From Gemmatimonadales bacterium (GTDB taxonomy: Bacteria > Gemmatimonadota > Gemmatimonadetes > Gemmatimonadales > GWC2-71-9): 64,000 bases of DNA. The notes beneath the pieces are model-generated. The model searched no databases, was not told the origin of the DNA, and saw only the letters and a list, made by a program, of their open reading frames with translations. Made by a program: the position numbers and the translations under genes. Location of the stretch: the NCBI GenBank assembly GCA_025937755.1, contig JAICQR010000001.1, positions 1,542-65,541 of the forward strand, in the 5' to 3' direction. The number at the start of each line of letters is the position of its first letter. The stretch's first letter is position 1. Positions 36,731 to 52,680 of this stretch are shown here, in pieces.

Positions 36731-37477
36731 TCAGGCGCCCGAAAGGTACCCCGCCTGGAACCGCTCATCAGCCCGCGCCACATCCGCTGACTCGTACTCG
36801 TACGTCGTCCCGTTCCCGCACCACGTCACCCGGTCGCACGCGCCAAGGATGGTCTCCACCTCGTGGCCCGAGATGACCACCGCGCAGCCTTCCGTTGCCA
36901 GTTGCCGCAGCACCACCGACAGCATTTCGGCATCTACCGGCGCGACGCCCCGAAACGGTTCATCCGCCAGCAGGCAGCTCGGCGCCCGCACCATCGCCAG
37001 CGCGAACTCCGCCCGTCGCAGCTCCCCGCCCGAGAAACGGCTCGGCGCCGTATTCAGGAGTGGGGCGGCGTTGAGGATCTCGATGGCAGAGTCGAGCCGC
37101 GCCTGCGTTCCGAAGCGTCGCGCGACTGCATTGAGCTGCCGGTAGAGCGGCATGCCGGGCGAGAGGATGTCACGGGATGGGAGATAGAAAAGTCCCCGGC
37201 TTGCAAGCACTGCAAGGCGGGGACGGAGATACGCTTCGCCCTCGAACTTCACGATTCCGGTATCGAAGGAACGGCATCCTGCCGCGATCTCCAGCAGCGT
37301 GGTCTTGCCGGCGCCGTTCCGGCCCAGCAGACCGGTGACGAGGCCGGCCCGCGCGCGGAGCGAGGCCACCCGGAGCACCTGGGTCCGGCCGTAGGCCTTG
37401 CCTATCGAATCCGCCTCAAGCCGGGCCAGGCTGCCCCCAGACAATGGCCAGCTCGCCAAGTATCGCCGGCGCGGCAC
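36731..37477 (-). CDS. ABC transporter ATP-binding protein
   Basis: Walker A GLLGRNGAGKTT, signature FSGGELRR, Walker B LLADEPFRGVAP. The start within the ORF is uncertain. Confidence 0.8.
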   Translation of the reverse strand: MPRRRYLASWPLSGGSLARLEADSIGKAYGRTQVLRVASLRARAGLVTGLLGRNGAGKTTLLEIAAGCRSFDTGIVKFEGEAYLRPRLAVLASRGLFYLPSRDILSPGMPLYRQLNAVARRFGTQARLDSAIEILNAAPLLNTAPSRFSGGELRRAEFALAMVRAPSCLLADEPFRGVAPVDAEMLSVVLRQLATEGCAVVISGHEVETILGACDRVTWCGNGTTYEYESADVARADERFQAGYLSGA

Positions 37478-37727
37478 AGCACAACGCCAGCACCCAGCGG
37501 CGCACGCCGAGGTTGGCCAGCAGCAGCAGCTGGTGGCGGCGGCGCAGTTCGATCATGCCCAGCGCGGCGACGATCAGCACCAGCCAGAGCGCTGCCGGGC
37601 CCGGCACCACGACCGGCTGCGGCGCGCCTTCGATGAGCATGGCGATGTACGCGAACCCGGCGCGAAGCACCAGCCACAGAAAAGCCCCCCGCACCAGCAG
37701 GGGTATCAGGAAGGTTCTATCAGGCAC
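37416..37727 (-). CDS. Small 3-TM membrane protein
   Basis: ORF 37416..37811 trimmed to GTG 37727 because the first 28 codons are translated repeat element. Hydrophobic segments FLIPLLVRGAFLWLVL, AALWLVLIVAALGMI and WVLALCCAAPAILGELAIV. Confidence 0.4.
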   Translation of the reverse strand: MPDRTFLIPLLVRGAFLWLVLRAGFAYIAMLIEGAPQPVVVPGPAALWLVLIVAALGMIELRRRHQLLLLANLGVRRWVLALCCAAPAILGELAIVWGQPGPA

Positions 37728-37740
37728 GCTTGAGAATAAG

Positions 37741-37999
37741 CGACAGATTGCGCAGATGCTGGGGCGCAGATGGCGCAGATCTTGGAAAGCGATGTCGCAG
37801 AGGCACGTCACAATATCTGGCGTCGGTGTACCTGATTGAGTTCGGTTGTGTTGTTTGTGGGAGCACCCACAAAAACAAAAGCGCCCAAGTACGTGGGCGC
37901 AGGAAACTCATCGTGTCTCGAACGCTCGGCGAAATCGCAGTTCAACATCTGCGCAATCTGCGCCCCAGAATCCGCGTACTCTGCGCCCCAGCATCCGCT
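37741..37999. repeat. Composite palindromic intergenic element (copy D, full length)
   Basis: Left arm ACAGATTGCGCAGATG..GCGCAGATGGCGCAGAT. CGATGTCGCAGAGGCACGTC block. Core TTGTTTGTGGGAGCACCCACAAAAACAAAAGCGCCC (37851-37886). Right arm AACATCTGCGCAATCTGCGCCCCAGAATCCGCG. Confidence 0.8.
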
Positions 38000-38002
38000 A
38001 AA

Positions 38003-38230
38003 TCAGCAGTTACAATCCGCCGAGTCTGCCGCTGCAGCTTTCCCCCCGGCCTGCTTGGGCGGGCATGGTGTATCGGCATACGAGCAGAACACGCAGCAAT
38101 CCCCCGGCTTGGGACGCAGGCGCGTGCCACACGACACGCAGTCGTGGATGTACACGCAGGCGTTGACGGGCATGACTTCGTCCGTCTCTGCCAGGCACAC
38201 CGGGCAGCGAAGTCGCGCGCTTTGCTTCAT
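38003..38230 (-). CDS. GDCCVxC domain-containing small Cys-rich protein
   Basis: RCPVCLAETDEVMPVNACVYIHDCVSCGTRLRPKPGDCCVFCSYADTPCPP matches the named GDCCVxC family pattern. C-terminal CNC. Confidence 0.75.
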   Translation of the reverse strand: MKQSARLRCPVCLAETDEVMPVNACVYIHDCVSCGTRLRPKPGDCCVFCSYADTPCPPKQAGGKAAAADSADCNC

Positions 38231-38332
38231 ACGTGCGCTTTCAGTGCTGCAGGAGATTCAGGGGGCACTGCCGCCGCGTCACGCACCCCCGCTCAGGGGG
38301 CTGCCCGGGAGTGGTGACGGGCGTGCCCGCGG

Positions 38333-38689
38333 TCAGGCCGCGGGCGATACTGCTGCGAGCATCCGGCGATCCCGCCGGAGCGCCCGCATGACCTGGTCGC
38401 ACACATCGGCAACGGAACGTGCGAAGTAGAACGGAACCGATGGCAGTGGCACCCCGAAGAATTCCTCGAGCACCTCGCGATACTCGTCCACTGCGTCCTG
38501 GTTCCAGCCCACGTCCCGGTAGAGGTGAACATCGAGGTTCAGGGCGCTGTAGTGCCAGGTGCCGGTGATCGTGACGATGATGCTGCGGGCGTACAGACGA
38601 ACCTCGCCCGGGGTCAGATCAGCCCGCACATTGGTGCGCTCCCTCCGTCTCAGCGCCTCGATGTCCTGCCGAATCTCCGGTGCCACCAT
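38333..38689 (-). CDS. Hypothetical protein (118 aa)
   Basis: GAGG SD 10 nt upstream of the ATG. TATAGT box upstream. No recognised family. Confidence 0.5.
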   Translation of the reverse strand: MVAPEIRQDIEALRRRERTNVRADLTPGEVRLYARSIIVTITGTWHYSALNLDVHLYRDVGWNQDAVDEYREVLEEFFGVPLPSVPFYFARSVADVCDQVMRALRRDRRMLAAVSPAA

Positions 38690-38742
38690 GGTTTCACAGC
38701 CTCAGGGGAGCGACACTATAACGCTTCCCCCAAAATCGCGAT

Positions 38743-38760
38743 ACTAGTACTTCTACTAGT
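38743..38760. promoter_or_regulatory. Palindrome ACTAGTA-CTTC-TACTAGT in an AT-rich island (candidate operator)
   Basis: 7-bp arms with a 4-nt spacer, located between the NarL-type regulator stop and the 118-aa gene. It contains TACTTCT, which fits the NarL heptamer TACYYMT. Confidence 0.35.
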
Positions 38761-38839
38761 CAAGAATTTGACAGTTTATGAAGATGACCGATTCCAGCGG
38801 TGGGAGCTCTCTAACTAGTTGATGCAGAAAAGCTTACGG

Positions 38840-39490
38840 CTAGACTAACCCTTCGGTGACCGCGTAGCGAACCAGGGCTGCGGTGCTGTTAAGCCCCAGA
38901 ATGTGCTTGATCCTTGCCCGATGGAACTCAACTGACCGGGCGCTCAACCCCAGCTCTTCGGCGATTTCCTCGGCGGTCCGGCCCCGGGCAATCATCACCA
39001 GCACCTCCCGCTGGCGCGGCGTCAGGGCCGTCAGCCCCCCCGTGGCGGGGTGGCCCCTCGGGTCGAGCCGGGCCTGCAGCGCCTCGGCCTCCTCGAGCGC
39101 GGGGGTCAGGTACTTCCGGCCCGCCATCGCCTCGGCGATGGCAAGGCGCAGCTCCTCGGCCCTGGCGCTCTTGAGCACGTAGCCCAGCGCACCCACCTTG
39201 ATCGCCTCGTCGGCGTAGATCCGGTCGGCATGCATGGTCACGATCACGACCGCGACCTCGGGATGCTGCTTCCGGATGTCGGCGCAAATTTCGAGACCGC
39301 TCCGTCCCGGAAGCGAAAGGTCCAGCAGCACCACGTCCGGCTTGAGCCGTGTCACCGCACCCAGCGCGCTCCTCCCGTCACCCTCCACACCGACGATGTC
39401 GTGATCCGCGTTCAGCATCGCGCTGATGCCCTCCACCATGAGCGCGTGGTCATCCACCAGCAGCAGGCGGGGTCGCGCCTTCATGTCGGC
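38840..39490 (-). CDS. NarL/FixJ-type response regulator (REC + LuxR HTH)
   Basis: Trimmed to Met33 (MKARPRLLLVDDHALMVEG..DVVLLDLSLPGRSG). LTPRQREVLVMIARGRTAEEIAEELGLSARSVEFHRARI. The upstream (GA)n extension is translated microsatellite. Confidence 0.9.
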   Translation of the reverse strand, partial: ADMKARPRLLLVDDHALMVEGISAMLNADHDIVGVEGDGRSALGAVTRLKPDVVLLDLSLPGRSGLEICADIRKQHPEVAVVIVTMHADRIYADEAIKVGALGYVLKSARAEELRLAIAEAMAGRKYLTPALEEAEALQARLDPRGHPATGGLTALTPRQREVLVMIARGRTAEEIAEELGLSARSVEFHRARIKHILGLNSTAALVRYAVTEGLV

Positions 39491-40344
39491 TCCATATCCG
39501 GCCCGGGCTCGAGCTCCGGCTCCGGCTCCGGCTCCGGCTCCAGCTCCAGCTCCAGCTCCGGCTCCAGATCCTTCGACGGTGCCCACGCGGTCACTCGGGT
39601 GCCGCCGCCCGGCGTGGAACGGATCATCACCCTTCCCTGCACCAGCTCCAGCCGCTCACGCAGACTGGTAAGGCCGAGGCCGGCCTTGGACGCGGCCGCC
39701 GAGGGATCGAACCCGACGCCGCCATCTTCCACTTCCAGCGTGATCCCGTCGGCGTCGGCCCTGAGCCGCAGATCCGCCGAGCCGGTGCCGGCGTGGCGCT
39801 GCACATTGCGCAACGATTCCTGGGCCACCCGGTACAGGGCAGTCGCCATCGGTTCGCGGACGGTCCGGGCGCCGGTGGCGACCGACACTCTAACGTCGAG
39901 CCCCTGAGCCTGGAACTCCGACCCCAGCTGCACCAACGCCGCCGGCAGCCCCAGGTGGTCCAGTGCCGCCGGATGCACCCGATGGGCCAGCCCCCGGATG
40001 CCGCCGGCCAGTTCGTCCAGCTCACCCCGGATTGCCGCCAGACGTCCGAGTGCCGGTGCCGGTGCCGGCTCGGCGGCGTCGTCCTTTTCGAGAACTTCCA
40101 GCTCGTGGCCCAGCATCGCCACTCGCTGGATGATGTCGTCGTGCAGCTCCCGGGCGAGCCACGCCCGCTCCTCTTCCTGGGCCGCGAGCAGCCGTCCGCC
40201 GAACCCCTTGGTGGCCGCCAGGAATCGCCGCTGCTGGATCACCACCGACGCGACGAAGGCCAGGCTCAGGATCAGGCCAACGACGACTGCGGCAACGAAG
40301 ACCCACCAGATCTGGTTCGTTCCTGTTGGCACCGGATCGCCCAC
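39481..40344 (-). CDS. HisKA_3-type sensor histidine kinase
   Basis: One N-terminal TM (IWWVFVAAVVVGLILSLAFV). H-box ARELHDDIIQRVAML. HATPase region GLGLTSLRERLELVQG. GTG start. (EP/EL)n C-terminal tail. Confidence 0.85.
   Translation of the reverse strand: MGDPVPTGTNQIWWVFVAAVVVGLILSLAFVASVVIQQRRFLAATKGFGGRLLAAQEEERAWLARELHDDIIQRVAMLGHELEVLEKDDAAEPAPAPALGRLAAIRGELDELAGGIRGLAHRVHPAALDHLGLPAALVQLGSEFQAQGLDVRVSVATGARTVREPMATALYRVAQESLRNVQRHAGTGSADLRLRADADGITLEVEDGGVGFDPSAAASKAGLGLTSLRERLELVQGRVMIRSTPGGGTRVTAWAPSKDLEPELELELEPEPEPEPELEPGPDMEPT
39513..39566. repeat. Hexamer microsatellite (GCTCCG/GCTCCA x9)
   Basis: Lies inside the 3' end of the kinase gene and encodes ..LEPELELELEPEPEPEPELEPG. 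It ends 23 nt upstream of the regulator start. Confidence 0.9.
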
Positions 40345-40961
40345 GCGAAGAAGAGGTTATGCACGATGATCAGCACGGCATTGACGCCGAACACCCAGAG
40401 CATCAGCCCCAATTCGCGCCGCTGGAGCAGCATGTTCGCGACCGGATTGAGGATGGCGAGGAACGAGAAGTAGATCAATACGCCCGACGTCACCCAGAAC
40501 CAGGACTGATTCATGATGGGGACAATGAGGTTGCGAGACCGAGTCACCAATGTGTATGCGGCCACTGCTACCAGCAGTATGGCCTCGACCGTCTTGGCGT
40601 ACTGCGGGAACTCCGCCAGCGACTCTGTCGTCACCGTCAGGACGGCCCAAAGCACCAGGAACGCCGGAATGCATAGAACCACCGTAAGCCGGGCCAGTTC
40701 CCGCAACTGCCAGCGCGACATCGCCAGCAGCAGCACCGTCGCCTCGAAGGGCGTGAACAGGTGCACCAACCAGAGATTACGCTGATTCTGAGAGGATAAG
40801 TAACCCAGCACGACTCCCTCGACCAATGCCACAGCGGAGTAGAGCACGACGAGGCGCAGCGACAGGCTCAATGGTCGCGCGCGCATGGCCGCCGCGACAG
40901 GAAGGGCGGCAGATAGCACCGCGAGCGCGGGCAGGACCAGTCTGCCTGACATCTGCACCAT
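40272..40961 (-). CDS. 6-TM membrane protein, probable detached sensor module of the adjacent kinase
   Basis: Six hydrophobic segments. The 3' end overlaps the kinase ORF by 73 nt in another frame. Confidence 0.6.
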   Translation of the reverse strand: MVQMSGRLVLPALAVLSAALPVAAAMRARPLSLSLRLVVLYSAVALVEGVVLGYLSSQNQRNLWLVHLFTPFEATVLLLAMSRWQLRELARLTVVLCIPAFLVLWAVLTVTTESLAEFPQYAKTVEAILLVAVAAYTLVTRSRNLIVPIMNQSWFWVTSGVLIYFSFLAILNPVANMLLQRRELGLMLWVFGVNAVLIIVHNLFFAWAIRCQQERTRSGGSSLPQSSLA

Positions 40962-40964
40962 TCG

Positions 40965-41276
40965 CTAGCGCGCGTCCGGGTCGCAATAGGGCGGACAGGG
41001 CCATGCTTCTTCGGCCACCGACCCCTTCCACATGTCCCGTCCATCGGTATCGGCTGCAACCAGCACCAGCGTCTCATGCCCCTTGTCGCGCCGGGCATGG
41101 TACATCCGGATCCCGACGCATCCTTCCTGCGCCAGCAGCTTCTCGATTGCCTCGCGCCCGAAGAAGTGACCGTGCGCCTTGCCGTTCGATGCCTTGTCGG
41201 CGCGCCACGCCTTGATGAGCCCCTTCGCCTGCTCGGGATCGATATCGTGCGGCTCCTTGCCGCTGAACATGGACAT
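40965..41276 (-). CDS. Hypothetical small protein (103 aa) with C-terminal CPPYC
   Basis: GAGGAGG SD. GCVGIRMYHARRDKGHETLVLVAADTDGRDM..WPCPPYC. No family that I can name. Confidence 0.6.
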   Translation of the reverse strand: MSMFSGKEPHDIDPEQAKGLIKAWRADKASNGKAHGHFFGREAIEKLLAQEGCVGIRMYHARRDKGHETLVLVAADTDGRDMWKGSVAEEAWPCPPYCDPDAR

Positions 41277-41285
41277 GGTGCCTCC

Positions 41286-43721
41286 TCAGGAGGGTTCTCG
41301 GGAAAGCAGCGCCAACGCGTCACGGATCTTCTGCTGGTGTTCGGCCGCATCCTCCCGCCCCGACATCTCCCACTGGCGGAGCGCGCTCCGATAGAGCGAA
41401 TCGGCCCGGGAGAGTCGCCTGGTCTTGCCGTACAGCTCGGCCAGGGCCTGCTGAGCCTCGGCGATGTAATAGCTCGTGGGCTCGAGCGCCCTCTCCCGGA
41501 TGCGCAGCGCGGTGGTCAGGTGAGCTTCGGCACGCGCCAACCTGCCCAGCTCGAGCTGGGCCACACCGATCGAATGATGGGTGGTGGCAATGAACGGATG
41601 ATCAGGTGACAGTGACTTCTCCCGGATGACCAGTGCCTGCTCCAGCAGCGGAATCGCCTCGGCGCTCCTCCCCATCCGCGTCAGGGTGTTGGCCCTCGCC
41701 GTGAGGACGGCTCCAACGTGCGGATGCTCCGCGCCCAGGGCTTTCTCAAAGATCACCTGGGCCCGTTCGTACTCCTTCAGGGATTCCCCGAAGCGGCCTA
41801 CCTCCGAAGCAACGTTGCCGAGATTGTAGTGGTCAACGCCCGCCTGCATGTGATCCGGGCCGTAGGCCTTGATCTTGACGGCGAGCGCCTGATGGTAGAG
41901 CGAATCCGCTGCGGTGAACTTGCCCTGCTCGAACAGCGAGCTCGCCAGCCCGCTCATCGCAGCCGCCACCCCGGTCGAGTTGGCGCCATCCGCCCGAAGT
42001 CTGCTGGCCAGCACCTGCCGGAACAGTGATTCCGCAGCTTCCGGTTTACCCTGCTCCGCCTGCGATGCCGCCAATGTCCAAGTCTGCTCGGTCACGTCCT
42101 CGTGGTCGGCACCCAATTGCTCCCGCAGCATCCCGAGCCGGAGGCGCGCGACCGAGTCAGACTCCTGAAAGCGACCCTCGCCCCGGTACGTCTCACTCAG
42201 CACCTCCAGCGTCCATGCCAGGTCCACCTGCTCAGCATCGGCCTGGCCTGCAAGTCTGATTGCGCGCACCAGGGCTGATTCTGCCCGGGGGTAAAGCCCC
42301 TGTTCCTTGTAGAGCGAACCCAGCGACGTCAGGCTGGAAGAAAGGCCGGCGCTGTTGTCGCCCGGCAGGCTCTCCCGTATCGCCAGCGAACGATCCAGCA
42401 GCCGCTCGGCCTCGGCATATGCTCCCAGCTGGGTGTACACGCCGCCGATGGTCCGCATCAGCCGCGCCTGCACCTCCGGCTGCCCTGACAGCTCCCGGTC
42501 CAGTCGCACCGCACCGGAATCCAGAATCTCGCGCGCGGTGATGGCATCGCCCCGGGCACGGTCAGGTCTCGAGATGTTGAACAGTCTCACCAGGAAGTTG
42601 GACACTTCGTCTGCGGTCGCTGCTTCACGTACAGCCCGCTCGTTGGCGCGGGTCGCACGGACGAAACCCGTAACCGCCGCGCCCGCTCCCACCAGGAGCG
42701 CCGCCACCACCGCCGCACCCGCCAGCACCAAGATCCGGTGCCGACGGACAAACTTTTGCAGCCGGTACGTCGCTGTGGGCGGGCGAGCATGCACCGGCTC
42801 GTGCGCCAGATAGCGTCGCAGGTCATTGCCAAGCCCGGACGCCGACTGGTACCGGCGGTTCCGGTCCTTGTCCATCGCCGTCATCACGATCCAGTCGAGA
42901 TCACCCTTCAGCTCCCGGCGGAGGTGATCGGCACTGGTGCTGCGCAATGTGGCGATCGGGCCCTGGTCACCTGCCAGCGTCGTGACCTTGTGACTCGGCA
43001 GCGGTGGGTCGGTGGCGCGCTGCGCCAGCCGGGCCAGGAAGGCCTGAAGGCCGCGCTCCGCCGGATCCTCCGGCAGTCGGCCCACCAACAGCTCGTACAG
43101 CATCACGCCGAGGCTGTAGATGTCGGTCCGGGTATCGACGTCGAGCCCCGAGCGCTCGGCCTGCTCCGGGCTCATGTAGGCCGGCGTGCCGATGGTCTGC
43201 CCCACCATGGTAACCATGGTGCGCTCGGTGAACTGTGCACCGGTGGCCTTGGCGATCCCGAAGTCGATGATCTTGGGCACCGGCCTGCCGTCGGACTCGG
43301 TGACCATCACGTTGGAAGGCTTGAGATCGCGGTGGATCACGCCCTTCTGGTGGGCATGCTGCACCGCGTCGCATACCGGCCGGAAAAGTTCCACCCGCTC
43401 ACGAGTGGAGAGCTTCCGGCTGTCGCAGTACTCGGTGATGGGGATGCCCTTCACCAGTTCCATCACGAAATAGGGACGGCCGTCGTCGCTGGCGCCGGCG
43501 TCGAGCACCTTGGCGATCGACTCGTGGTTCATCACCGCCAGCGCCTGCCGCTCCGACTCGAACCGCGCCAGGATGTCGCGCGACTCCACTCCCCCGCGCA
43601 CCACCTTGAGTGCCACCCGCCGCTGCACCGGAGCGGTCTGCTCTGCCTCGTAGACCGTCCCCATCCCGCCTTCTCCCAGGATCTGGAGAATGCGGTAGGG
43701 TCCGATGCGTTCGAACGTCAC
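41286..43721 (-). CDS. Ser/Thr protein kinase with TM segment and C-terminal TPR repeats
   Basis: GEGGMGTVYEA..VALKVV, HRDLKPSNVM, DFGIAK, SPEQ. TM ILVLAGAAVVAALLVGAGAAV. Many TPR-like units. Confidence 0.9.
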   Translation of the reverse strand: MTFERIGPYRILQILGEGGMGTVYEAEQTAPVQRRVALKVVRGGVESRDILARFESERQALAVMNHESIAKVLDAGASDDGRPYFVMELVKGIPITEYCDSRKLSTRERVELFRPVCDAVQHAHQKGVIHRDLKPSNVMVTESDGRPVPKIIDFGIAKATGAQFTERTMVTMVGQTIGTPAYMSPEQAERSGLDVDTRTDIYSLGVMLYELLVGRLPEDPAERGLQAFLARLAQRATDPPLPSHKVTTLAGDQGPIATLRSTSADHLRRELKGDLDWIVMTAMDKDRNRRYQSASGLGNDLRRYLAHEPVHARPPTATYRLQKFVRRHRILVLAGAAVVAALLVGAGAAVTGFVRATRANERAVREAATADEVSNFLVRLFNISRPDRARGDAITAREILDSGAVRLDRELSGQPEVQARLMRTIGGVYTQLGAYAEAERLLDRSLAIRESLPGDNSAGLSSSLTSLGSLYKEQGLYPRAESALVRAIRLAGQADAEQVDLAWTLEVLSETYRGEGRFQESDSVARLRLGMLREQLGADHEDVTEQTWTLAASQAEQGKPEAAESLFRQVLASRLRADGANSTGVAAAMSGLASSLFEQGKFTAADSLYHQALAVKIKAYGPDHMQAGVDHYNLGNVASEVGRFGESLKEYERAQVIFEKALGAEHPHVGAVLTARANTLTRMGRSAEAIPLLEQALVIREKSLSPDHPFIATTHHSIGVAQLELGRLARAEAHLTTALRIRERALEPTSYYIAEAQQALAELYGKTRRLSRADSLYRSALRQWEMSGREDAAEHQQKIRDALALLSREPS

Positions 43722-44221
43722 TACTCCCCCAGCACCGGCTCGACTGGTTCCGGCTCGGGCGCCGTCAGCTGGTGACGGTCGATCAGGCGGACACAGGTGT
43801 TCCAGCGCAGCAGCGCCTCGTCATTGCCAGGCGCGCGAAGCTGCTCGGCCTCGGCAAACAGCGCCATCGCACGGTGCAGCCATTCCCACGCCATGTCACC
43901 TCGCCCCGCCACCTTGGATTCCAGTTTGGCGCGAGCTCGGCGCTCGCACAGGATCCCGCCGTAGTAGGCCTTCTTGTAGGCGTCGGTGACCCGGTCCAGC
44001 GGCTCGCGTGCCCGTTCGTAGTCGGTCGACACTTCGTCGCCGAACTGATCGCTCCGCGCCAGCGCCAGCTGAATCAACGCCGATTCGTTCGCGGGGTCGG
44101 TCGCCAGCACGTCAAGGCAGATGCTCTCGGCGGCCCAGCCCTCGTCCAGCAGCCGGTACCGTTCCGCCTTGGCCAGCGCGGCGTCGATGCCGGCCGGACT
44201 GATGCGTTTCAGTTGACTCAT
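43721..44221 (-). CDS. Hypothetical helical protein (166 aa)
   Basis: AGGAG SD. 1-nt overlap with the kinase start. No recognised family. Confidence 0.55.
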   Translation of the reverse strand: MSQLKRISPAGIDAALAKAERYRLLDEGWAAESICLDVLATDPANESALIQLALARSDQFGDEVSTDYERAREPLDRVTDAYKKAYYGGILCERRARAKLESKVAGRGDMAWEWLHRAMALFAEAEQLRAPGNDEALLRWNTCVRLIDRHQLTAPEPEPVEPVLGE

Positions 44222-44240
44222 GACTCGCTCCTGCGCGGCG

Positions 44241-44999
44241 TCAGGTATGCCGCCGAGAGAAGATCTTCACCAGCTTGCCCACCGGATCGAACGCGTCATC
44301 GACCACTCGCTCCTTGAGCGGGATGATGGCGTTGTCGGTGATGGTGATGTGCTCCGGACACACAGCGGTGCAGCACTTGGTGATGTTGCAATACCCGATG
44401 CCGTGCGCCTGCCGCAGCTCGGGGATGCGGTCCTCGGTGTCGAGCGGGTGCATCTCCAGCGCCGCGGCATATACCAGGTAGCGCGGGCCGATGAATTCGT
44501 CGTGCTTCTGGTGGTCGCGCAGCACGTGACACACGTCCTGGCACAGATAGCACTCGATGCACTTCCGGAACTCCTGCACCCGGTCCACGTCCGACTGCGC
44601 GATGCGCCAGGTGCCGTCCGGCGCGTCGGGCTCCCGCGGCTTGAACGGCTTGATCCCCTGCTTCACCCGGTAGTTCCAGCTGACATCGGTGACCAGGTCG
44701 CGCACCAGCGGGAACGCCTTCATCGGCTCGACCGTAACCGGCTGGCTCATGTCCAGTTCGTTCAACCGTGTCATGCACATCAGTCGCGGCTTGCCGTTGA
44801 TTTCGGCCGAGCACGAGCCGCACTTCCCCGCCTTGCAGTTCCATCGCACCGCGAGGTCGTTGGCCTGCTCGGCCTGGATCTGGTGCACCGCATCCAGCAC
44901 CACCATCCCTTCCGACACCGTCGTGGGATAGTCCGCGAATCCGCCGCCCGACGCATCGCCCCGCCAGATCCGGAAGGTCGCCTGGGTTTCCTGTTGCAT
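44241..44999 (-). CDS. sdhB: Succinate dehydrogenase/fumarate reductase iron-sulfur subunit
   Basis: Cluster motifs CKAGKCGSCSAEINGKPRLMC, CIECYLCQDVC and CNITKCCTAVCP. Confidence 0.9.
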   Translation of the reverse strand: MQQETQATFRIWRGDASGGGFADYPTTVSEGMVVLDAVHQIQAEQANDLAVRWNCKAGKCGSCSAEINGKPRLMCMTRLNELDMSQPVTVEPMKAFPLVRDLVTDVSWNYRVKQGIKPFKPREPDAPDGTWRIAQSDVDRVQEFRKCIECYLCQDVCHVLRDHQKHDEFIGPRYLVYAAALEMHPLDTEDRIPELRQAHGIGYCNITKCCTAVCPEHITITDNAIIPLKERVVDDAFDPVGKLVKIFSRRHT

Positions 45000-45000
45000 C

Positions 45001-46908
45001 TCAGCGCACCTCCAGAACGAGGGTCCTGGTCCAGGGAACCTCGGAATACGGCCCGGACAATATCAGCCGCAGCGAGTCGCCCTGGCGCGGCACAATCTCG
45101 AAGTCCGCGGTTTCTCCCGGCCCGGTGAGCAGCGTCGCCCGACGAGACACCGCCCGCGCCGGCGGCAAATCAGCGCCATCCTTGGCCAGGGGCCGCCAGC
45201 TCGTCACCGTCGTATCTCGCACCAGCTCGAACAGCACCCGCTGATCGGCGTTGATATTGATCAGTCGCAAACGATTGGGCCGGCCGGCCGCCACTCTGAG
45301 CGGCCTCGGCGATTCGTGCCCGTTCACCAGCCCGGCCGCCGAGTCCCGGAAGGTGGGTCCGTCGAGCCCGACGATCACGAGATGGTCGGTGTCCGGGTCC
45401 GGTGTCGTGCCCGGTTCCACCACCAGCAGCGCTCCGTACAGACCCATTGCCAGCTGGGTCATCTCGTTGGCGTGCGCGTGGTAGATGAACGTCCCCGAGC
45501 GGGGTGGCGTGAACTCGGCGACGAACGAATCCCCCGGCGCTATCGGTGCCATCACCTTCGGCAGGATGCCGCTCCAGCCGGGGACGCCGTCGGGGTAGCT
45601 CTCGAGCTCGATGCCGTGCCAGTGGACGCCGCTGGGCTCGGCCAGGTTGTTGACTACTGTAATCCGGACTGGCTTGCCCCGTTCCAGCACCAGCCTTGGC
45701 CCCGGAATCTCGATCGAGTCCCGGCGAAGATCCGCGTCCTGCGGAATGACGAAGCCATAGCCGGCGGAGTCGCCGAAGCGACGGGGCGACGACTGCAGCA
45801 GCAGCCGGATCCTGCGGGCGGAATCGGTCTTCGCGGCGGCCTGCCACCCGTCGGGCACCGGAACCCGGATGCCCATGACCAGCCCGTTCATCGCGCGCTC
45901 CGCTGTGTGCTGGTGCGGCAGGCCCGAGGAGTCACCCCTTGCCGCGGCTTCCAGCGCGAGGTTGCCGGTGAGCGATGCCAGCGGCGACACGTGAAACGCG
46001 AAGTGGCAATGGAGGATCCAGTTGCCCGGCTGGCTCGGGGCCCAGCGCATCGCCATTGTGTTCCACGGCAGCATCAGTTCGGTGACCATCTGCGGCCGCG
46101 CTCCCGCCGCAAACAGCGTGTCCTGCAGCCAGTCACCCCGGCTCGCGAGCTCAAAGTAGAATCCGTGCAGGTGCATCGGATGCGAGCTGTTGGTGGGGTT
46201 GACCCAGCGCCAGGTCACGCTGTCGCCCAGCGCCACGTCCAGCCGCTCGGTGTTGGGCCACGACTTGCCATTGATCACCATGATGTCGCGCGGCGGCAGG
46301 TCTGGTGTGACCGAGTCTGGCGCCTGCGACCACATGCCCATCACGAACACCCGGTCGTCGGTGTTCGCTCCAACCGAATCCACCACCAGCGCGCCGCCCA
46401 GCTGGCTATCGCTCCCGGTCCTGTCGCCCGCGTCGTTGCCCAGGAGGTTCGCGGCGTAGAAGTAGGTGCCCGGCGTGCCCGCGAGAAATTCCACTGTCCG
46501 CTGCTGGCCCGCCGGCACCACTACCGAATCCGCAGCATTGCCCGGGCGCGACATCAGGCCGTGCACCACGATGGTGGAATCGGCCAGCGTATTCCTGACA
46601 CGGATGCGGATGGTGGTGCCTTCCGGGACCCGGATCAGCGGCGAGGGGATCTGCAGTGCACCGCCTGCTTCCCGGAATGCCAGCAGGTCAATCGCCGGGC
46701 CATCGTCCGCGTCCGGCTGCCAGGAGCCGCGGTCCACTTCGAGGTTCAGCGTGAGAACGCCAGCAGCGAGGCTGCCGGCCGCAACGCGGTTGGCGTGGGT
46801 CTCGATGGACGGCAGCCCGGTGCTCGAGCGCAGCGCGCCGCAACCAGCGGCCACCAGGCAGGCACTGCCGAGGCCCAGCCACGCACTGATAGCCCGAAAG
46901 CCTATCAT
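45001..46908 (-). CDS. Four-cupredoxin-domain multicopper oxidase lipoprotein (permuted ligand order)
   Basis: Lipobox LGSACLVAAGC. HPMHLHGFYFE and NWILHCHFAFH in the second quarter. VHWHGIEL and IYHAHANEMTQLAMGLYG in the third quarter. The first and last quarters are cupredoxin-like without His pairs. Confidence 0.75.
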   Translation of the reverse strand: MIGFRAISAWLGLGSACLVAAGCGALRSSTGLPSIETHANRVAAGSLAAGVLTLNLEVDRGSWQPDADDGPAIDLLAFREAGGALQIPSPLIRVPEGTTIRIRVRNTLADSTIVVHGLMSRPGNAADSVVVPAGQQRTVEFLAGTPGTYFYAANLLGNDAGDRTGSDSQLGGALVVDSVGANTDDRVFVMGMWSQAPDSVTPDLPPRDIMVINGKSWPNTERLDVALGDSVTWRWVNPTNSSHPMHLHGFYFELASRGDWLQDTLFAAGARPQMVTELMLPWNTMAMRWAPSQPGNWILHCHFAFHVSPLASLTGNLALEAAARGDSSGLPHQHTAERAMNGLVMGIRVPVPDGWQAAAKTDSARRIRLLLQSSPRRFGDSAGYGFVIPQDADLRRDSIEIPGPRLVLERGKPVRITVVNNLAEPSGVHWHGIELESYPDGVPGWSGILPKVMAPIAPGDSFVAEFTPPRSGTFIYHAHANEMTQLAMGLYGALLVVEPGTTPDPDTDHLVIVGLDGPTFRDSAAGLVNGHESPRPLRVAAGRPNRLRLININADQRVLFELVRDTTVTSWRPLAKDGADLPPARAVSRRATLLTGPGETADFEIVPRQGDSLRLILSGPYSEVPWTRTLVLEVR

Positions 46909-46912
46909 ACGT

Positions 46913-48727
46913 TTACCGATTCTCCTCGATGATGGTGGCCAGCTCCGCCGTCATCTGCGGAATGGGACGGCGCTCGAGTTGCATTGCACCATCCGCACCC
47001 TTGCGCACCAGGATATTGAACGAAGCGAAGGCATCGTCCTTTGACGGATAGTCATCCCGGAAGTGACCACCCCGGCTTTCTTTCCGTTCCAGCGCCGATC
47101 GGGTGATTGCCTCGCTTACGGTGAGCAGGTTGTCGAGGTCGAGTGCGGTGTGCCAGCCCGGGTTGTACTCCCGGTTGCCGCCGGTGCCGGTGCGGCCTGC
47201 ACGCACCCGCAGCTGCGCGATCCGTTCCAGCGCGGTCTGCATGTCGCTTTCGGTTCGGACGATGCCCACCAGGTCCTGCATCGAGTCCTGCAGGTCGTGT
47301 TGCACCTGGTACGGCGCCTCGGCCGACGCGCCCCGCTCGAACGGCTCCAGCGTCCGCGTGGCCCATTGGTCCACTTCCGCGCGGTCCACCGTGCCCGCGG
47401 AATGCGACGCCGCCCACACGGCGGCGTGATGCCCGGCGCGCTGCCCGAACACCAGCAGATCGGACAGCGAGTTGCCGCCCAGCCGGTTGGCGCCGTGGAG
47501 CCCGGCCGCCACTTCTCCGGCCGCGAAAAGCCCGGGCACGCTCGACATCTGAGTGTCGCCATCCACATTCACCCCGCCCATCGCGTAGTGAGTGGTCGGC
47601 CCCACTTCCATGGGCGTGGTGGTGATGTCGATGTCCGCCAGCTGCTTGAACTGGTGGTACATGCTGGGAAGCTTCTTGCGAATTACCTCGGCGGCGTTGG
47701 GCAGCTTCTCCTTGATCCATGCAATGTCGAGGAAGACCCCGCCGTGCGGGCTGCCCCGGCCCTCGCGCACTTCGCGCATGATGCAGCGGGCCACGTGATC
47801 GCGGGTCAGCAGCTCGGGTGGCCGGCGGGCATCCTTGTCGCCCTGGACGTAGCGCCATCCCTCCTCCGGCGTGTCCGCGGTCTGCGAGCGGTAGTTCTCG
47901 GGGATGTCGTCGAACATGAACCGCTTGCCTTCGCTGTTCACGAGAATGCCACCCTCACCTCGCACGCCCTCGGTCACCAGGATCCCGCGCACGCTCGGCG
48001 GCCACACCATGCCGGTGGGATGGAACTGCACGAACTCCATGTCCTTGAGTTCGGCGCCGGCGTGATACGCCAGCGACTGCCCGTCACCAGTGTATTCCCA
48101 GCTGTTGCTGGTGATGCGGAATGCGCGGCCGATTCCCCCGGTGGCGAGCACGATCGCCTTGGCGCGGAACAGCCGGAAGCGGCCCCGCTCGCGATCGTAG
48201 CCGAATGCGCCTGCGACCCGGTCGCCGTCCTTGAGCAGGGTGACGACGGTGACTTCCATGTGGACGTCGATCCCCTGATGCACGCCGTGGTCCTGCAGGG
48301 TGCGGATCATCTCCAGCCCGGTGCGGTCGCCCACGTGGGCCAGGCGGGGATACTTGTGGCCGCCGAAGTTGCGCTGGAGGATGCGGCCATCCGCGGTCCG
48401 GTCGAACAGCGCGCCCCATGCCTCGAGTTCGCGCACCCGGTCCGGTGCCTCTTTCGCGTGCAGCTCGGCCATCCGCCAGTTGTTCATGTACTGGCCGCCC
48501 CGCATGGTGTCGGCGAAGTGCACCTTCCAGTTGTCGCGATCGTCCACGTTGGCGAGCGATGCGGCTACGCCGCCTTCCGCCATCACCGTATGGGCCTTGC
48601 CTAGAAGGGACTTGCACACCAGCCCGACCGAGGCGCCACCGGCCGCTGCTTCGATGGCCGCGCGCAGGCCCGCGCCCCCGGCGCCGATCACCAGCACGTC
48701 GTGTTCGTGGGTCTGGTAGTCGGCCAT
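46913..48727 (-). CDS. sdhA: Succinate dehydrogenase/fumarate reductase flavoprotein subunit
   Basis: ORF 46913..49465 trimmed to MADYQTHEHDVLVIGAGGAGLRAAIEAA (the start overlaps the sdhC stop as TGATG). HPTG and HYAMGG motifs. Confidence 0.9.
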   Translation of the reverse strand: MADYQTHEHDVLVIGAGGAGLRAAIEAAAGGASVGLVCKSLLGKAHTVMAEGGVAASLANVDDRDNWKVHFADTMRGGQYMNNWRMAELHAKEAPDRVRELEAWGALFDRTADGRILQRNFGGHKYPRLAHVGDRTGLEMIRTLQDHGVHQGIDVHMEVTVVTLLKDGDRVAGAFGYDRERGRFRLFRAKAIVLATGGIGRAFRITSNSWEYTGDGQSLAYHAGAELKDMEFVQFHPTGMVWPPSVRGILVTEGVRGEGGILVNSEGKRFMFDDIPENYRSQTADTPEEGWRYVQGDKDARRPPELLTRDHVARCIMREVREGRGSPHGGVFLDIAWIKEKLPNAAEVIRKKLPSMYHQFKQLADIDITTTPMEVGPTTHYAMGGVNVDGDTQMSSVPGLFAAGEVAAGLHGANRLGGNSLSDLLVFGQRAGHHAAVWAASHSAGTVDRAEVDQWATRTLEPFERGASAEAPYQVQHDLQDSMQDLVGIVRTESDMQTALERIAQLRVRAGRTGTGGNREYNPGWHTALDLDNLLTVSEAITRSALERKESRGGHFRDDYPSKDDAFASFNILVRKGADGAMQLERRPIPQMTAELATIIEENR

Positions 48728-49530
48728 CAGAAGATCCTCACGTCGTGCCAGATGCCCATCGAACAGAGCCGCACATAGATGTCGGCGAATGCCACGCTGA
48801 ACAGGCTGAACCAGGCCCACTTCGGGTGCCAGCGATTGAGGCAGCTGGTGCAGTCGTAGGCCGCCTTCCGCACCGGGCGGCCCGCAAGACGGTCGAGATA
48901 GCCGCCCACAATGTGTCGCAGTGAGTGGCACCCCAGCGTGTAGAGGGCCAGCAGGACGGTGTTGGTGGCGAGGATCAGCGTCCCCACGCCCATGCCGAAC
49001 TCCTTGACGCCGGTCGCCGGATCCACAAACCACAGCGCCTTCCACACATCGCTCGCGAGGATCACCAGGAAGACAAGAGCGATGTAGAGCAGGTACCGGT
49101 GCACGTTCTGCAGCACCAGCGGGAGGGTGCGTTCGCCCAGATAGGTCTTGCGTGGCTCGCCCACGGTGCAGGCGGGCGGATCGGCCCAGAACGCCTTGTA
49201 GTAAGCGCCGCGATAGTAGTAGCAGGTGACCCGGAACAGCCCCGGGAAGGGCAGGATGATCAGCGCCGGCGAAAACGGGAGGAAGCCCGGCCACCAGCCC
49301 GGTTTGGGGCCGAACCAGCTGTGCGCCGAGTCGCCGAAGAGGACCGGAGAATAGAAGGGAGAGAGGTAGGGCCCGAACTCGTAGTGCGCGTTCTGGAAGG
49401 CGGCCCAGGTGGCATATACAATGAAGGCCGTCAGGATGATGAAGACCACCACCGGCTGGACCCACCAGGCGTCCCGCCGCATCGTCTCGCCAAAGCGGCG
49501 CCGGGTGAGCTGAACGAGCGCGTCAGCCAT
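48727..49530 (-). CDS. sdhC: Succinate dehydrogenase membrane (cytochrome b-like) subunit
   Basis: A 5-6 TM protein directly coupled to sdhA. The assignment rests on position and topology, not on a motif I can name. Confidence 0.6.
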   Translation of the reverse strand: MADALVQLTRRRFGETMRRDAWWVQPVVVFIILTAFIVYATWAAFQNAHYEFGPYLSPFYSPVLFGDSAHSWFGPKPGWWPGFLPFSPALIILPFPGLFRVTCYYYRGAYYKAFWADPPACTVGEPRKTYLGERTLPLVLQNVHRYLLYIALVFLVILASDVWKALWFVDPATGVKEFGMGVGTLILATNTVLLALYTLGCHSLRHIVGGYLDRLAGRPVRKAAYDCTSCLNRWHPKWAWFSLFSVAFADIYVRLCSMGIWHDVRIF

Positions 49531-49671
49531 GCGGAGAGGAACCTCTCGGGACAGGTGGAAGCATTCGGCGCGCGGGGGATTGTGCTATCGGGAAAGATAC
49601 GCGGTCCCGGCGATCAGGCTACTTTCCTCGGGGCCGGTCGGCCCCTCACCTCACATCGCCCGGAGCCCCAC

Positions 49672-50220
49672 ATGCTCATGTGGCTCGTCATAGCCGTCGC
49701 CGTCGTGGGCGGCTACCTGATCCTGACCTGGAACGGCCTCACCCGGCTTCGCCAGCTCGCCCGCAATGCCTGGGCCGATATCGACGTCCAGCTCCGCCGG
49801 CGACACGACCTCATTCCCACATTGGTGGCGACGGTTCAGGGACATGCCGGATACGAGCGCGGCACCCTCGAAGCCGTGGTCGATGCCCGCCAGCGGGCCC
49901 AAGCCGCACCCGGCCCCGCCGCGGCCGGCGCCGCCGAGCAGAGCCTGACCACCCAGGTCCGCCAGTTGTTCGCGATCGCGGAAGCTTATCCCGATCTCAA
50001 GGCTGGCGGCAGTTTTCTCGAGCTGCAGCGATCACTGGTAGAAATCGAGGACCATATCCAGAACGCCCGCCGGTACTACAACGCCGTGGTCCGCGATCTC
50101 AACACCGGCATCCAGAAGTTTCCCGCCAGCCTGGTGGCCGGGCCGCTGGGCTTCCACGAGGAGGAATTCTTCGGATTGGACGACGACTCCCAGGCGGCCG
50201 TGCCGCAGGTGTCACTGTGA
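49672..50220 (+). CDS. lemA: LemA family protein
   Basis: MLMWLVIAVAVVGGYLILTWNGLTRLRQLARNAWADIDVQLRRRHDLIP, typical LemA. The long upstream ORF extension was rejected. Confidence 0.85.
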   Translation: MLMWLVIAVAVVGGYLILTWNGLTRLRQLARNAWADIDVQLRRRHDLIPTLVATVQGHAGYERGTLEAVVDARQRAQAAPGPAAAGAAEQSLTTQVRQLFAIAEAYPDLKAGGSFLELQRSLVEIEDHIQNARRYYNAVVRDLNTGIQKFPASLVAGPLGFHEEEFFGLDDDSQAAVPQVSL

Positions 50221-51938
50221 TCGCCCGCGCCTGTGCGTGGCTTCTGCCGGCGCTGCTGTTGCTGCCGGCCCCGGCCCTCGCGCAGCGGACCATCGAAATT
50301 CCCCGCTTCCACTCGCGTATCGTGGTGGAACAGGACGGGACCATCGACGTCACAGAGACGTTCACCGCCCGCTTCAATGGCTCGTGGAACGGCATCTATC
50401 GCACGGTGCCGGTGAAGTACCGCACCCCACAGGGCTTGAATTGGACTATCCGGATCGATCTCGTGTCGGTCACCGACGACCAGGGCAACGAGCTTCGCAC
50501 CGAGACGTCCCATCCGCGGCACTATGTCAAGTACAAGATCTGGGTGCCCGGCGCGCAGGACACCGAGCGCACCATCGTGCTCCACTACAGGGCAAAGAAT
50601 GCGCTTCGCTTCTTCGAGGACCACGACGAACTCTACTGGAACGCCACCGGCGACGAATGGGAAATGCCTCTCGGCATGGTTTCCGCCGAGGTCGTGCTCC
50701 CCGGCGACGCCAGCGGGATCCGGACGACGTCGTACAACGGGGTCGTGGGCTCCACTGCCGGCGATGCCGAGATCGCCCAGGCGGGGTCAAGCATTCGGTT
50801 TACGATGCCGAGGCCGCTGGAATATCTCGAGGGCCTGACTGTCGTGGTGGGCTGGGACAAGGGACTGATCCCGGAGCCGACGTTCCTGGACAAATCGATG
50901 GGGGTACTCGCCGCCAACTGGCCGCTGGGCGTTCCCTTCGCTGTGCTGGCGCTGATGCTCTGGATCTGGTCCCGGATTGGCCGGGATCCCCGGAAGCGTC
51001 CCATTGCAGTGCAGTATGAGCCCCCGGCGAACATGACGCCGGCCGAGGCGGGCACGCTCACCGACGAGCGGGTGGACATGCGCGACATCACCGCCACCAT
51101 CGTGGACCTCGCGGTGCGCGGGTTCCTCCGAATCGAGGAGACCGAGGAGCCGGTGCTCTTGGGGCTCTCGACCAAGCAGGAATTCACATTCCACGAGCTC
51201 CGGAAAGTCGACGGCCAGGTCGAGCTCGCGCCCCACGAGAGCAAGGTGCTGCGGGGCATCTTCAAGCACGGCAGCAGCGTCCCGCTCTCAGAGCTCAAGG
51301 ATGAGTTCTACACCGAGCTGAGCGGCATCAAGAACGGGGTGATGAACCAGCTCACCCTCAAGCAGCATTACCTGAGGCGGCCGGATCATGTGCGCGCCTG
51401 GGCGATTGCGGGCGGGCTGGTCTGCCTGCTGATCGTGATCTTCGGCGGCGGGATACTCTCCACCGTCTTGCAGCTCCAGCTCACGCCGGTGCCCTTTGTG
51501 ATTGCCGGCATCCTGAGCGCCATAATCATTGTGGTCATCGGCTGGAACATGCCGGCCCGGACCGAGAGCGGGACCCGCGCGCTGGAGCAGGTGCTCGGCT
51601 TCAGCGAGTTCCTCGAACGGGTGGACAAGGAGAAGTACGAGCACATCAAGCGCACACCGGAGATGTTCGAGCGCTTCCTTCCCTATGCCATGGCGTTCGG
51701 GGTCGAACAGCAGTGGTCAAAGGCATTCAAGGATATGTACATGGAGCCGCCGACCTGGTACGTCGGCAGCAACATGCACCTCTTCAATGCCACCAGCTTC
51801 TCACACAGCCTGTCGAGCATGTCCACTTCGGCGGCGTCGGCAATGAGCTCGGCGCCGAGAAGCTCGAGTGGCTCGGGATTCGGCGGCGGAGGCTTCTCGG
51901 GAGGAGGCGGCGGCGGGGGTGGGGGCGGAGGCTTCTAA
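50217..51938 (+). CDS. DUF2207 domain membrane protein
   Basis: GTG start overlapping the lemA stop (GTGA). Signal VIARACAWLLPALLLLPAPALA. IEIPRFHSRIVVEQDGTIDVTETF. Gly-rich tail GGGGFSGGGGGGGGGGGF. LemA-DUF2207 is a known pair. Confidence 0.8.
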   Translation: MIARACAWLLPALLLLPAPALAQRTIEIPRFHSRIVVEQDGTIDVTETFTARFNGSWNGIYRTVPVKYRTPQGLNWTIRIDLVSVTDDQGNELRTETSHPRHYVKYKIWVPGAQDTERTIVLHYRAKNALRFFEDHDELYWNATGDEWEMPLGMVSAEVVLPGDASGIRTTSYNGVVGSTAGDAEIAQAGSSIRFTMPRPLEYLEGLTVVVGWDKGLIPEPTFLDKSMGVLAANWPLGVPFAVLALMLWIWSRIGRDPRKRPIAVQYEPPANMTPAEAGTLTDERVDMRDITATIVDLAVRGFLRIEETEEPVLLGLSTKQEFTFHELRKVDGQVELAPHESKVLRGIFKHGSSVPLSELKDEFYTELSGIKNGVMNQLTLKQHYLRRPDHVRAWAIAGGLVCLLIVIFGGGILSTVLQLQLTPVPFVIAGILSAIIIVVIGWNMPARTESGTRALEQVLGFSEFLERVDKEKYEHIKRTPEMFERFLPYAMAFGVEQQWSKAFKDMYMEPPTWYVGSNMHLFNATSFSHSLSSMSTSAASAMSSAPRSSSGSGFGGGGFSGGGGGGGGGGGF

Positions 51939-52649: not shown

Positions 52650-52680
52650 ACGCTTCGCTCCGGTTGCTTGTTGGCGAACC

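Follow-up and report, generated by a model that had tools for sequence, protein, structure and literature searches.

The closest described counterpart of the locus reported here is the succinate dehydrogenase Sdh1 of Mycobacterium (MSMEG_0420-0416, Rv0249c-Rv0247c; structure 7D6V), whose genes are ordered C-A-B. The M. smegmatis sdh1 operon holds two extra unknown genes, which lie ahead of sdhC and behind sdhB, respectively, and RT-PCR showed co-transcription of the five genes (PMC4145680). The M. smegmatis enzyme has an unusual membrane redox center, the C-terminus of its SdhC is periplasmic, and a membrane-embedded Rieske-type 2Fe-2S cluster is ligated by His155, His240, and two cysteines; the quinone site was located with ubiquinone-1, which occupied a pocket formed by cytoplasmic N termini (PMC8054011). 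We analyzed an sdh operon that we assign to this type (type-F) in a 64,000-nt stretch of contig JAICQR010000001.1 from a Gemmatimonadales bacterium (hereafter the window; 66% GC). In the minus-strand array that we examined, from position 49530 to 38840, a gene for a multicopper oxidase (MCO) lies between sdhA and sdhB, and the genes downstream encode a Ser/Thr kinase (STK) and a small signaling cassette. Our preferred reading, to which we assign a probability of about 0.6 as a whole, is that this array is a concatenation of four evolutionary units with separate histories: a type-F sdh operon, an inserted and retained gene for an exported MCO, an accreted STK, and an accreted, autonomous cassette.

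Ten open reading frames (ORFs) run head to tail on the minus strand, each separated from the next by no more than 19 nt or overlapping it (Table 1). The initial annotation had claimed such a ten-gene array and listed its nine junctions; all of the ORFs are present where it placed them, their identities held up in Pfam, NCBIfam, and PDB sequence searches, and recomputing the junctions gave agreement at all nine. From the 5' end, sdhC and sdhA overlap at TGATG, 4 nt separate sdhA from the MCO gene and 1 nt the MCO gene from sdhB, and 19 nt containing AGGAG precede the gene for a TPR-like protein, p166. A 1-nt overlap (TAGTG) then joins p166 to the STK gene, 9 nt containing GAGGAGG lead to the gene for a small protein, p103, and 3 nt to that for a polytopic membrane protein, 6TM, after which the genes for a histidine kinase (HK) and a response regulator (RR) follow by successive overlaps. 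Homologues of the window proteins carry the names Gemmatimonadales or Gemmatimonadota, and most of the region is 98-100% identical to a 2.9-Mb ENA contig (ERZ28493349).

Residues 15-266 of the window SdhC align to residues 24-271 of the M. smegmatis Sdh1 SdhC (7D6V_C) at 43% identity, and no Pfam or NCBIfam model matches the protein. H144 and H235 align with the cluster ligands His155 and His240 and are invariant, as are C103, C121, and C201 (three cysteines against two ligand cysteines). For SdhA and SdhB the top-scoring equivalog models are NF005866 and NF009052, the same NCBIfam equivalogs to which the mycobacterial subunits belong. Because SdhC matches 7D6V_C with the Rieske histidines kept, and SdhA and SdhB score above the equivalog cut-offs, the sdh operon at this locus is of type-F and is predicted to encode a three-subunit succinate:quinone oxidoreductase like Mycobacterium Sdh1. 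The two systems also share a single full-length homologous SdhC anchor, the gene order C-A-B, and an operon with additional genes besides sdhCAB. They differ in that the window comes from a member of the Gemmatimonadota, in the MCO gene that splits sdhA from sdhB, and in the continuation of the array into signaling genes; the gene after sdhB in the window encodes p166, whereas MSMEG_0416 holds that place in M. smegmatis and can be set beside p166 by position only. The contiguity of sdhC-sdhA-sdhB that marks a type-F operon is broken in the window by the 1908-nt MCO gene, a departure that concerns the operon and not the enzyme.

When metagenomes were scanned with an SdhC alignment, 80 loci emerged whose SdhC shares 65-78% identity with that of the window, and 32 of these loci cover the sdhA-sdhB junction. 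None of these 32 related type-F loci has an MCO gene at the junction, and most of the junctions consist of TAATG or ATGA overlaps or of gaps of a few nucleotides. At three loci (L130, L141, and L153) the sdhA/sdhB junction holds an insert of 510-555 nt with inverted-repeat flanks, encoding a 23S_rRNA_IVP (PF05635) protein; the junction therefore appears to tolerate insertions and to be a recurrent insertion site. Of 27 related non-MCO loci with sequence downstream of sdhB, 23 have p166 next, the genes beyond p166 vary from locus to locus, and neither STK nor p103, 6TM, HK, or RR was detected downstream of sdh in related non-MCO loci at E<1e-6. Given the junctions without MCO, the frequency of p166, and the variability beyond it, the ancestral unit was probably sdhC-sdhA-sdhB-p166, a four-gene form that is the common one and widespread in Gemmatimonadota and Acidobacteriota metagenomes. 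The synteny comparison thus bears out the initial annotation in its claim that the window departs from the usual sdhCAB arrangement: 0 of 32 related loci have the MCO, and none has kinase or two-component genes downstream.

The order sdhA-MCO-sdhB was found in seven assemblies from different samples (the window, L081, L082, L165, L166, L168, and L169), and in the five tabulated loci the MCO gene lies -1 to 6 nt from sdhA and 1 to 36 nt from sdhB. The seven sdh-embedded copies agree at all 11 copper ligands. Nonsynonymous-to-synonymous rate ratios (dN/dS, Nei-Gojobori) for the MCO are 0.14-0.19 at dS 0.58-1.0, and those for sdhA in the same pairs are 0.09-0.24 at similar dS; because dN/dS is low at an sdhA-like dS, the MCO gene has long been co-inherited with sdh under purifying selection. 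Its third-position GC content (GC3, 0.84) is like that of the neighboring genes and no direct or inverted repeats were found flanking it, which rules out a recent foreign origin. These comparisons indicate that the MCO gene is kept between sdhA and sdhB under selection in one narrow group of uncultured soil Gemmatimonadales. They also dispose of an earlier worry that the MCO borders might mark an assembly chimera. The window does come from a metagenome assembly, and the L082 copy contains an in-frame stop codon, both of which would fit a chimera or a decaying pseudogene insertion, but seven independent assemblies from different studies share the order with near-identical junctions, the copper ligands are intact, dN/dS is 0.14-0.19, and the composition is native; we regard an artefact of either kind as effectively refuted.

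The history of the insertion was examined in a neighbor-joining tree of the C-terminal 273 residues of SdhA, which included five of the MCO-bearing loci (all but L168 and L169) and was run with 200 bootstraps. The MCO-bearing loci fell into two fully supported subgroups, the window with L081 and L166, and L082 with L165. Since the MCOs of each subgroup have their closest relatives in the other, and both lie at the same site, the gene was most likely inserted once. That event would have been followed either by loss in the lineage of L088, a close relative without the MCO, or by recombination in the conserved sdhA/sdhB flanks that spread the gene laterally.

Several points weigh against our reading or limit it. 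The five MCO-bearing loci formed an exclusive clade in the SdhA tree in only 1 of 200 bootstraps, and L088 was sister to L082 plus L165 in 176 of 200. In L082 the MCO reading frame is interrupted by TGA at codon 542 (L082:7045-7047; GGA in the window), and gene calling yielded two products, of 541 and 78 aa; the TGA could stem from a sequencing error, from a nonsense polymorphism, or from the onset of local decay. A scan for sigma-70-like promoters gave no match on either strand, but it has little power at 66% GC and is hardly informative on internal promoters. Finally, retention of the MCO gene at the exact site over dS ~1, with compressed junctions, could equally reflect a functional tie to Sdh as a benefit from co-expression.

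Outside this lineage the MCO family shows no attachment to complex II. At 80 genome loci with MCO homologues of 41-56% identity there is no sdh within 10 kb and no conserved neighbor, and the nearest non-sdh copies (L083, L084, and L167; 58-60% identity) lie in unrelated contexts, again with no sdh nearby; these three have an ORF for a 113-aa transmembrane (TM)/coiled-coil protein upstream of the MCO that is absent in the window. A conserved partner gene for the family was sought by clustering ORFs within 3.5 kb of the 80 homologues, and the clusters were only common paralogue families (S9 peptidases, antisense of STKs), with no operon partner among them. At least 578 relatives were found in a genome scan, and this Gemmatimonadota family appears to be large, phylum-wide, exported, and mostly stand-alone, with four domains and a permuted motif order.

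The MCO protein has the complete ligand set of the multicopper oxidase superfamily for the type 1 (T1) and trinuclear sites (two HxH, HxxHxH, and HCHxxxH), all of it invariant in 25 homologues (H243/H246/H248, H300-C301-H302, H306, H429/H431, and H477/H479). The order of the motifs is permuted, in that those of C-terminal type (HPMHLHG and HCHFAFH, 243-306) precede those of N-terminal type (HWHG and YHAH, 429-479), and Cu-oxidase_2 at 207-308 precedes Cu-oxidase_3 at 400-498. An AlphaFold2 (AF2) model (pLDDT 81, pTM 0.83) consists of four beta-sandwiches at approximately 34-195, 207-301, 344-497, and 508-635, with a disordered linker at 304-340. The best whole-chain structural matches in Foldseek were six-domain MCOs (ceruloplasmin, factors V/VIII, and Bacillus MnxG), with query-normalized TM-scores of 0.54-0.61, although the alignment to these full-length chains of 1000-1500 aa is partial (TMt 0.27-0.39); three-domain laccases, CueO-like proteins, and Fet3p reached ~0.33 (query-normalized). 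With the six-domain enzymes the window protein also shares the division of trinuclear-site ligands between two different cupredoxin domains. It differs from them in having only four domains in 635 aa, which do not make up a six-domain pseudo-threefold ring, in carrying HxxHxH and HCHxxxH in domain 2 and HxH in domain 3, in a sequence identity of 12-16%, and in the lack of MnxE/F-like partner genes at the window.

The three-domain enzymes (CueO, CopA, and CotA) resemble the window MCO in their four copper motifs, in export, and in matches to Cu-oxidase_2 and Cu-oxidase_3. The permuted motifs, the fourth domain, and the lack of both a Met-rich segment and a Tat signal set the window protein apart from that class, as do scores below the curated cut-offs (120.3 bits against 479 for TIGR01480, copper_res_A; 72.4 against 525 for CueO). 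The literature that we searched, with incomplete coverage, names only two-, three-, and six-domain classes and does not describe a four-domain one, nor did the same search turn up a report of an MCO gene lying inside an sdh operon. All seven N-termini of the embedded MCOs resemble Sec signal peptides and have no twin arginine, and the copies in the window (AAGC), L081, and L166 have a lipobox-like cysteine, which suggests that the protein is exported and, in the subclade of the window, a lipoprotein. Because its N-terminus is of this kind, the MCO would be extracytoplasmic and could not be a subunit of the cytoplasmic SdhAB, and any physical contact would be with the periplasmic face of SdhC.

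It is from this side that a functional partnership with the type-F enzyme might be argued. The MCO might act as a periplasmic O2-reducing outlet that reoxidizes the quinol formed by Sdh or draws electrons via the membrane Rieske cluster, or else it might serve the many Sdh Fe-S clusters, by supplying or protecting them, as a ferroxidase or cuprous oxidase. Such roles would suit a gene that is placed within the operon, at junctions of -1 to 36 nt, and not merely next to it, and that purifying selection has maintained over dS ~1, and the periplasmic SdhC C-terminus and unusual membrane redox center of the M. smegmatis enzyme (PMC8054011) would suit them as well. When the SdhC of MCO-bearing loci was compared with 78 others, three clade-specific positions emerged (V63, A69, and T191), two of which, V63 and A69, lie in the first loop that is predicted to be periplasmic and differ between MCO-bearing and nearly all other loci. 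However, these three substitutions come from only two independent lineages and are accompanied by no indels, which is too little for a claim of co-adaptation, in none of 84 loci with MCO relatives at or below 60% identity is sdh nearby, and 32 related sdh operons, as well as the close relative L088, manage without the MCO. The protein has no Met-rich Cu(I) segment (Met 2.4%), and the ubiquinone-1 in M. smegmatis Sdh1 was bound in a pocket on the cytoplasmic side. We therefore consider a partnership unlikely, and its strongest form, in which a lipid-anchored periplasmic MCO drains Sdh quinol or SdhC Rieske electrons to O2 independently of cytochromes, with expression set by the sensor cassette, highly improbable.

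Table 1. Features of the array, its flanks, and the loci compared with it (coordinates without a locus prefix are window positions).
Feature	Coordinates or accession	Strand	Description and basis
sdhC	48727-49530	-	Single membrane anchor; phmmer match PDB 7D6V_C, E 3.7e-52
sdhA	46913-48727	-	Flavoprotein subunit; NF005866 983.8 bits vs cut-off 819; FAD_binding_2, Succ_DH_flav_C
MCO	45001-46908	-	635 aa, four cupredoxin domains, permuted motif order; Cu-oxidase_2, Cu-oxidase_3
sdhB	44241-44999	-	Iron-sulfur subunit; NF009052 412.3 bits vs cut-off 256; Fer2_3, Fer4_8
p166	43721-44221	-	166-aa TPR-like protein; fourth gene of this sdh operon type
STK	41286-43721	-	Hanks-type Ser/Thr kinase, one TM helix, C-terminal TPR array; Pkinase, TPR_12
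p103	40965-41276	-	Small soluble 103-aa protein; first cassette gene; no Pfam match
6TM	40272-40961	-	Polytopic (~6 TM) membrane protein; hydropathy; no Pfam or NCBIfam match
HK	39481-40344	-	HisKA_3 + HATPase_c (Pfam), one TM helix, no sensor domain, (PE)n tail
RR	38840-39484	-	NarL/LuxR-type regulator, REC + GerE; ATGA overlap with HK stop
p118	38333-38689	-	118-aa protein, 150 nt beyond RR stop; travels with cassette; no Pfam match
6TM/HK overlaps	window 40272-40344; L168:10627-10687; L081:5283-5343; L174:6642-6738		
Divergent intergenic region sdhC / lemA-DUF2207	49531-49671	.	141 nt; only obvious site for an operon promoter (inferred)
Second MCO + 234-aa protein	52011-54105	-	2.5 kb upstream of sdhC, past divergent lemA-DUF2207 pair
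First two terminator-like hairpins downstream	37900-37881 and 37703-37686	-	Consensus scan
23S_rRNA_IVP inserts	L130:13282-13836; L141:3033-3544; L153:2668-3201		sdhA/sdhB junction
L081	ERZ27298496		MCO 83% identical to window
L166	GCA_046128415.1		MCO 83% identical to window
L082	ERZ28613070		MCO 75% identical to window
L165	ERZ1761213		MCO 75% identical to window
L168, L169			Strains near-identical to window; carry MCO between sdhA and sdhB

Downstream of sdhB, p166 belongs, by the comparison above, with the sdh operon and not with the signaling part. Its homologues number more than 8000, are approximately 165 aa long, are all unnamed, and have Gemmatimonadales and Blastocatellia among their hosts. 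In an AF2 model (pLDDT 93) the protein forms seven helices, and the nearest folds, weak matches at E ~3e-3, were the TPR chaperones PcrH/SycD and Hop TPR2A; a profile search of PDB sequences was also run. A putative role as an Sdh assembly factor or chaperone would be compatible with these matches.

The STK is a Hanks-type kinase (PF00069 Pkinase, 136.9 bits against 31.7, at residues 9-218), with a TM helix at 327-357 and a TPR_12 score of 197 bits. It is absent from L081 and L175-L177, where 37-61 nt separate the p166 stop from the same GAGGAGG site of p103, and appears to be a strain-variable insertion. Kinases of this Pkinase-TM-TPR type have expanded greatly in Gemmatimonadota; paralogues occur within 10 kb of 21 of 80 unrelated Gemmatimonadota MCO loci, and because they are so common, adjacency of the STK is weak evidence of a functional link.

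The cassette proper comprises p103, 6TM, HK, and RR. The p103 family, also unnamed, has 1102 cluster representatives in single-domain and tandem forms, whereas only 17 homologues of 6TM were found among 5.8 billion proteins, all of them orphans and none fused to a kinase. HK (HisKA_3 34 bits, HATPase_c 50 bits) and RR (Response_reg 92 bits, GerE 56 bits) make up a NarL-class two-component pair, with a HisKA_3 + HATPase_c kinase and a REC + GerE regulator. The NCBIfam matches of HK (MctS, UhpB, NarX, and LiaS) all lie far under their cut-offs (MctS 139 bits against 700), and RR scores 158 bits against a cut-off of 300 for MctR, so that the pair falls outside MctS/MctR. HK has one TM helix and no sensor domain, and for this reason 6TM is likely to be its input component.

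The 6TM gene is always followed by an overlapping HK gene. With the HK start corrected to GTG at 40344 or 40332, the two genes overlap out of frame by 61-73 nt in the window, and every lineage has an out-of-frame overlap of 61-97 nt, even one whose proteins are no more than 31% identical. Within the overlap, one frame encodes the sole TM helix of HK and the other the tail of 6TM. We considered and rejected the possibility that 6TM and HK are one frameshifted gene: there is no canonical slippery heptamer, the homologues are never fused, and the overlap is kept across 31-65% divergence. The RR start was also corrected, most likely to ATG at 39484 (MKARPRLLLVDDH), as supported by the gene calls of L168. 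A start at GTG 39586 is unlikely, because the extension reads a (TCCGGC)n repeat out of frame. This hexamer repeat (39487-39571) encodes the (PE)n tail of HK and, in the other frame, a spurious (GA)n extension of RR; the 300-nt segment 39565-39266 has 36 gap columns against L168, suggesting variation in repeat length.

Accessory membrane protein, intramembrane-sensing HisKA_3 kinase, and NarL-type regulator also make up the LiaFSR/VraTSR systems, to which the cassette is alike in layout only. The shared features are a minimally anchored, sensor-less HisKA_3/HATPase_c kinase, a REC + GerE regulator, and an overlapping upstream gene for a membrane protein. The differences are that 6TM belongs to a 17-member orphan family with no detectable similarity to LiaF and does not qualify as an accessory LiaF, that the LiaS model matches HK at E 3.8e-12, far under its cut-off, and that the window has the extra small genes p103 and p118.

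The cassette follows p166 or the STK in the window, L168, L169, L081, and L175-L177, and on the short contigs of L170-L173 it occurs with partial upstream context. The p118 protein is found after RR at 83-96% identity in L081, L168, L170, and L175-L177. A further observation concerns L170, where an ORF with a DUF3667 N-terminus (L170:668-1402) ends in 62 residues of the STK C-terminus, with one substitution relative to the window, directly upstream of p104-6TM-HK-RR; either the rearrangement is genuine or the metagenome contig is chimeric. The MCO-bearing L082 lacks the cassette after p166 and has a convergent gene there instead, and in L174 a cassette of the same overlapping layout and homologous proteins (p103 38% identity; the others 31, 41, and 43%) has SprT-like and acyl-CoA dehydrogenase genes as neighbors and lacks sdh. 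The window and L168 share 98-100% nucleotide identity on the flanks, and identity falls only across 41060-38670 (L168:9900-12230), with sharp boundaries: to 65-72% in 41060-40170, which covers 6TM and the N-terminus of HK, and to 78-91% in the remainder of HK and in RR; L169 shows the same break. Because the break is confined to this segment, the cassette seems to have been exchanged or to have diversified independently of sdh, and we view p103-6TM-HK-RR as an autonomous unit separate from the sdh operon, as far as can be judged by comparing genomes.

The initial annotation had described a respiratory complex contiguous with three signaling proteins. The tight contiguity of the genes is real, but a single integrated unit finds no support in the comparative picture, because the STK is missing in L081 and L175-L177, and the cassette is missing in L082, free of sdh in L174, and replaced between the window and L168 by an allele of 65-89% identity. 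A related proposal, which may coexist with our reading, is that the STK and p103-6TM-HK-RR are dedicated regulators and that the whole 11-12 kb forms one autoregulated unit that would adjust respiration or copper oxidase expression to a membrane signal. Two-component systems often adjoin their targets, the gaps are <=19 nt throughout with no terminator-like hairpin, and the cassette sits beside the p166 region in lineages both with the STK (window, L168, and L169) and without it (L081 and L175-L177). Against this proposal stand the sdh-bearing locus L082 without the cassette and the cassette of L174 beside unrelated genes, its exchange between strains independently of sdh, the dispensability of the STK in close relatives, and the abundance of STK paralogues (21/80 loci), which makes adjacency expected by chance; in addition, no candidate RR binding site was identified. 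On balance we find a dedicated regulatory role doubtful.

Transcription across the array is nonetheless plausible from the spacing. A consensus scan of the minus strand found no terminator-like hairpin inside 49530-38840, and a search of 37000-50500 found no Rfam families; with no terminator and gaps <=19 nt, read-through from an sdh promoter into the signaling genes is possible. L168 shows 100% identity in the 300-nt comparison windows that span the sdhC-lemA spacer (49761-49462). On the far side of the divergent lemA-DUF2207 pair, the window has a second MCO of 465 aa, three-domain and with the usual order Cu-oxidase_3, Cu-oxidase, Cu-oxidase_2, and after it a 234-aa protein that matches cytochrome c weakly. 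A general association of MCO with sdh was considered on the strength of these neighbors and rejected, because in other lineages sdh has none of these genes (second MCO, cytochrome c, LemA, and DUF2207) in its neighborhood.

Our reading of the locus as four units would then run as follows. In one Gemmatimonadales lineage, a paralogue of the stand-alone, four-domain MCO family would have inserted precisely where sdhA and sdhB normally overlap. The 141-nt spacer between sdhC and lemA would hold a promoter that drives sdhC-sdhA-MCO-sdhB-p166, so that the MCO would be co-transcribed and probably translationally coupled with the Sdh subunits, and its position in the operon would give it an Sdh-like, aerobic-respiratory expression. 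The protein would be exported by Sec and would serve as a periplasmic oxidase that reduces O2. Next to p166, the STK and the cassette would have accreted in this lineage, and transcription may read through into them as a lineage-specific effect of adjacency, not as a conserved regulatory design. The gene identities, junctions, distribution, selection, and modularity in this account are shown by the data; we infer that the genes are co-transcribed, that the MCO is exported and works in the periplasm, and that mechanistic coupling is absent.

Few gene arrangements in bacteria are conserved as strongly as the complex II operon, in which sdhA and sdhB normally overlap and are coupled in translation. 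A foreign gene for an exported oxidase that is kept at this junction under purifying selection would be a rare case of a core respiratory operon gaining a member, and the embedded-MCO form of the type-F operon appears to be confined to a narrow uncultured lineage. Beyond this lineage, type-F Sdh operons outside the Actinobacteria would usually include a conserved TPR-like fourth gene, a candidate assembly factor, the Gemmatimonadota appear to hold a large, uncharacterized family of four-domain, motif-permuted MCOs, and a small sensor cassette seems to be exchanged between near-identical strains. The question posed by the locus is whether the lineage benefits from co-expression of the oxidase with aerobic respiration only, or whether there may be a link, through electron transfer or metal homeostasis, to the little-studied type-F enzyme.

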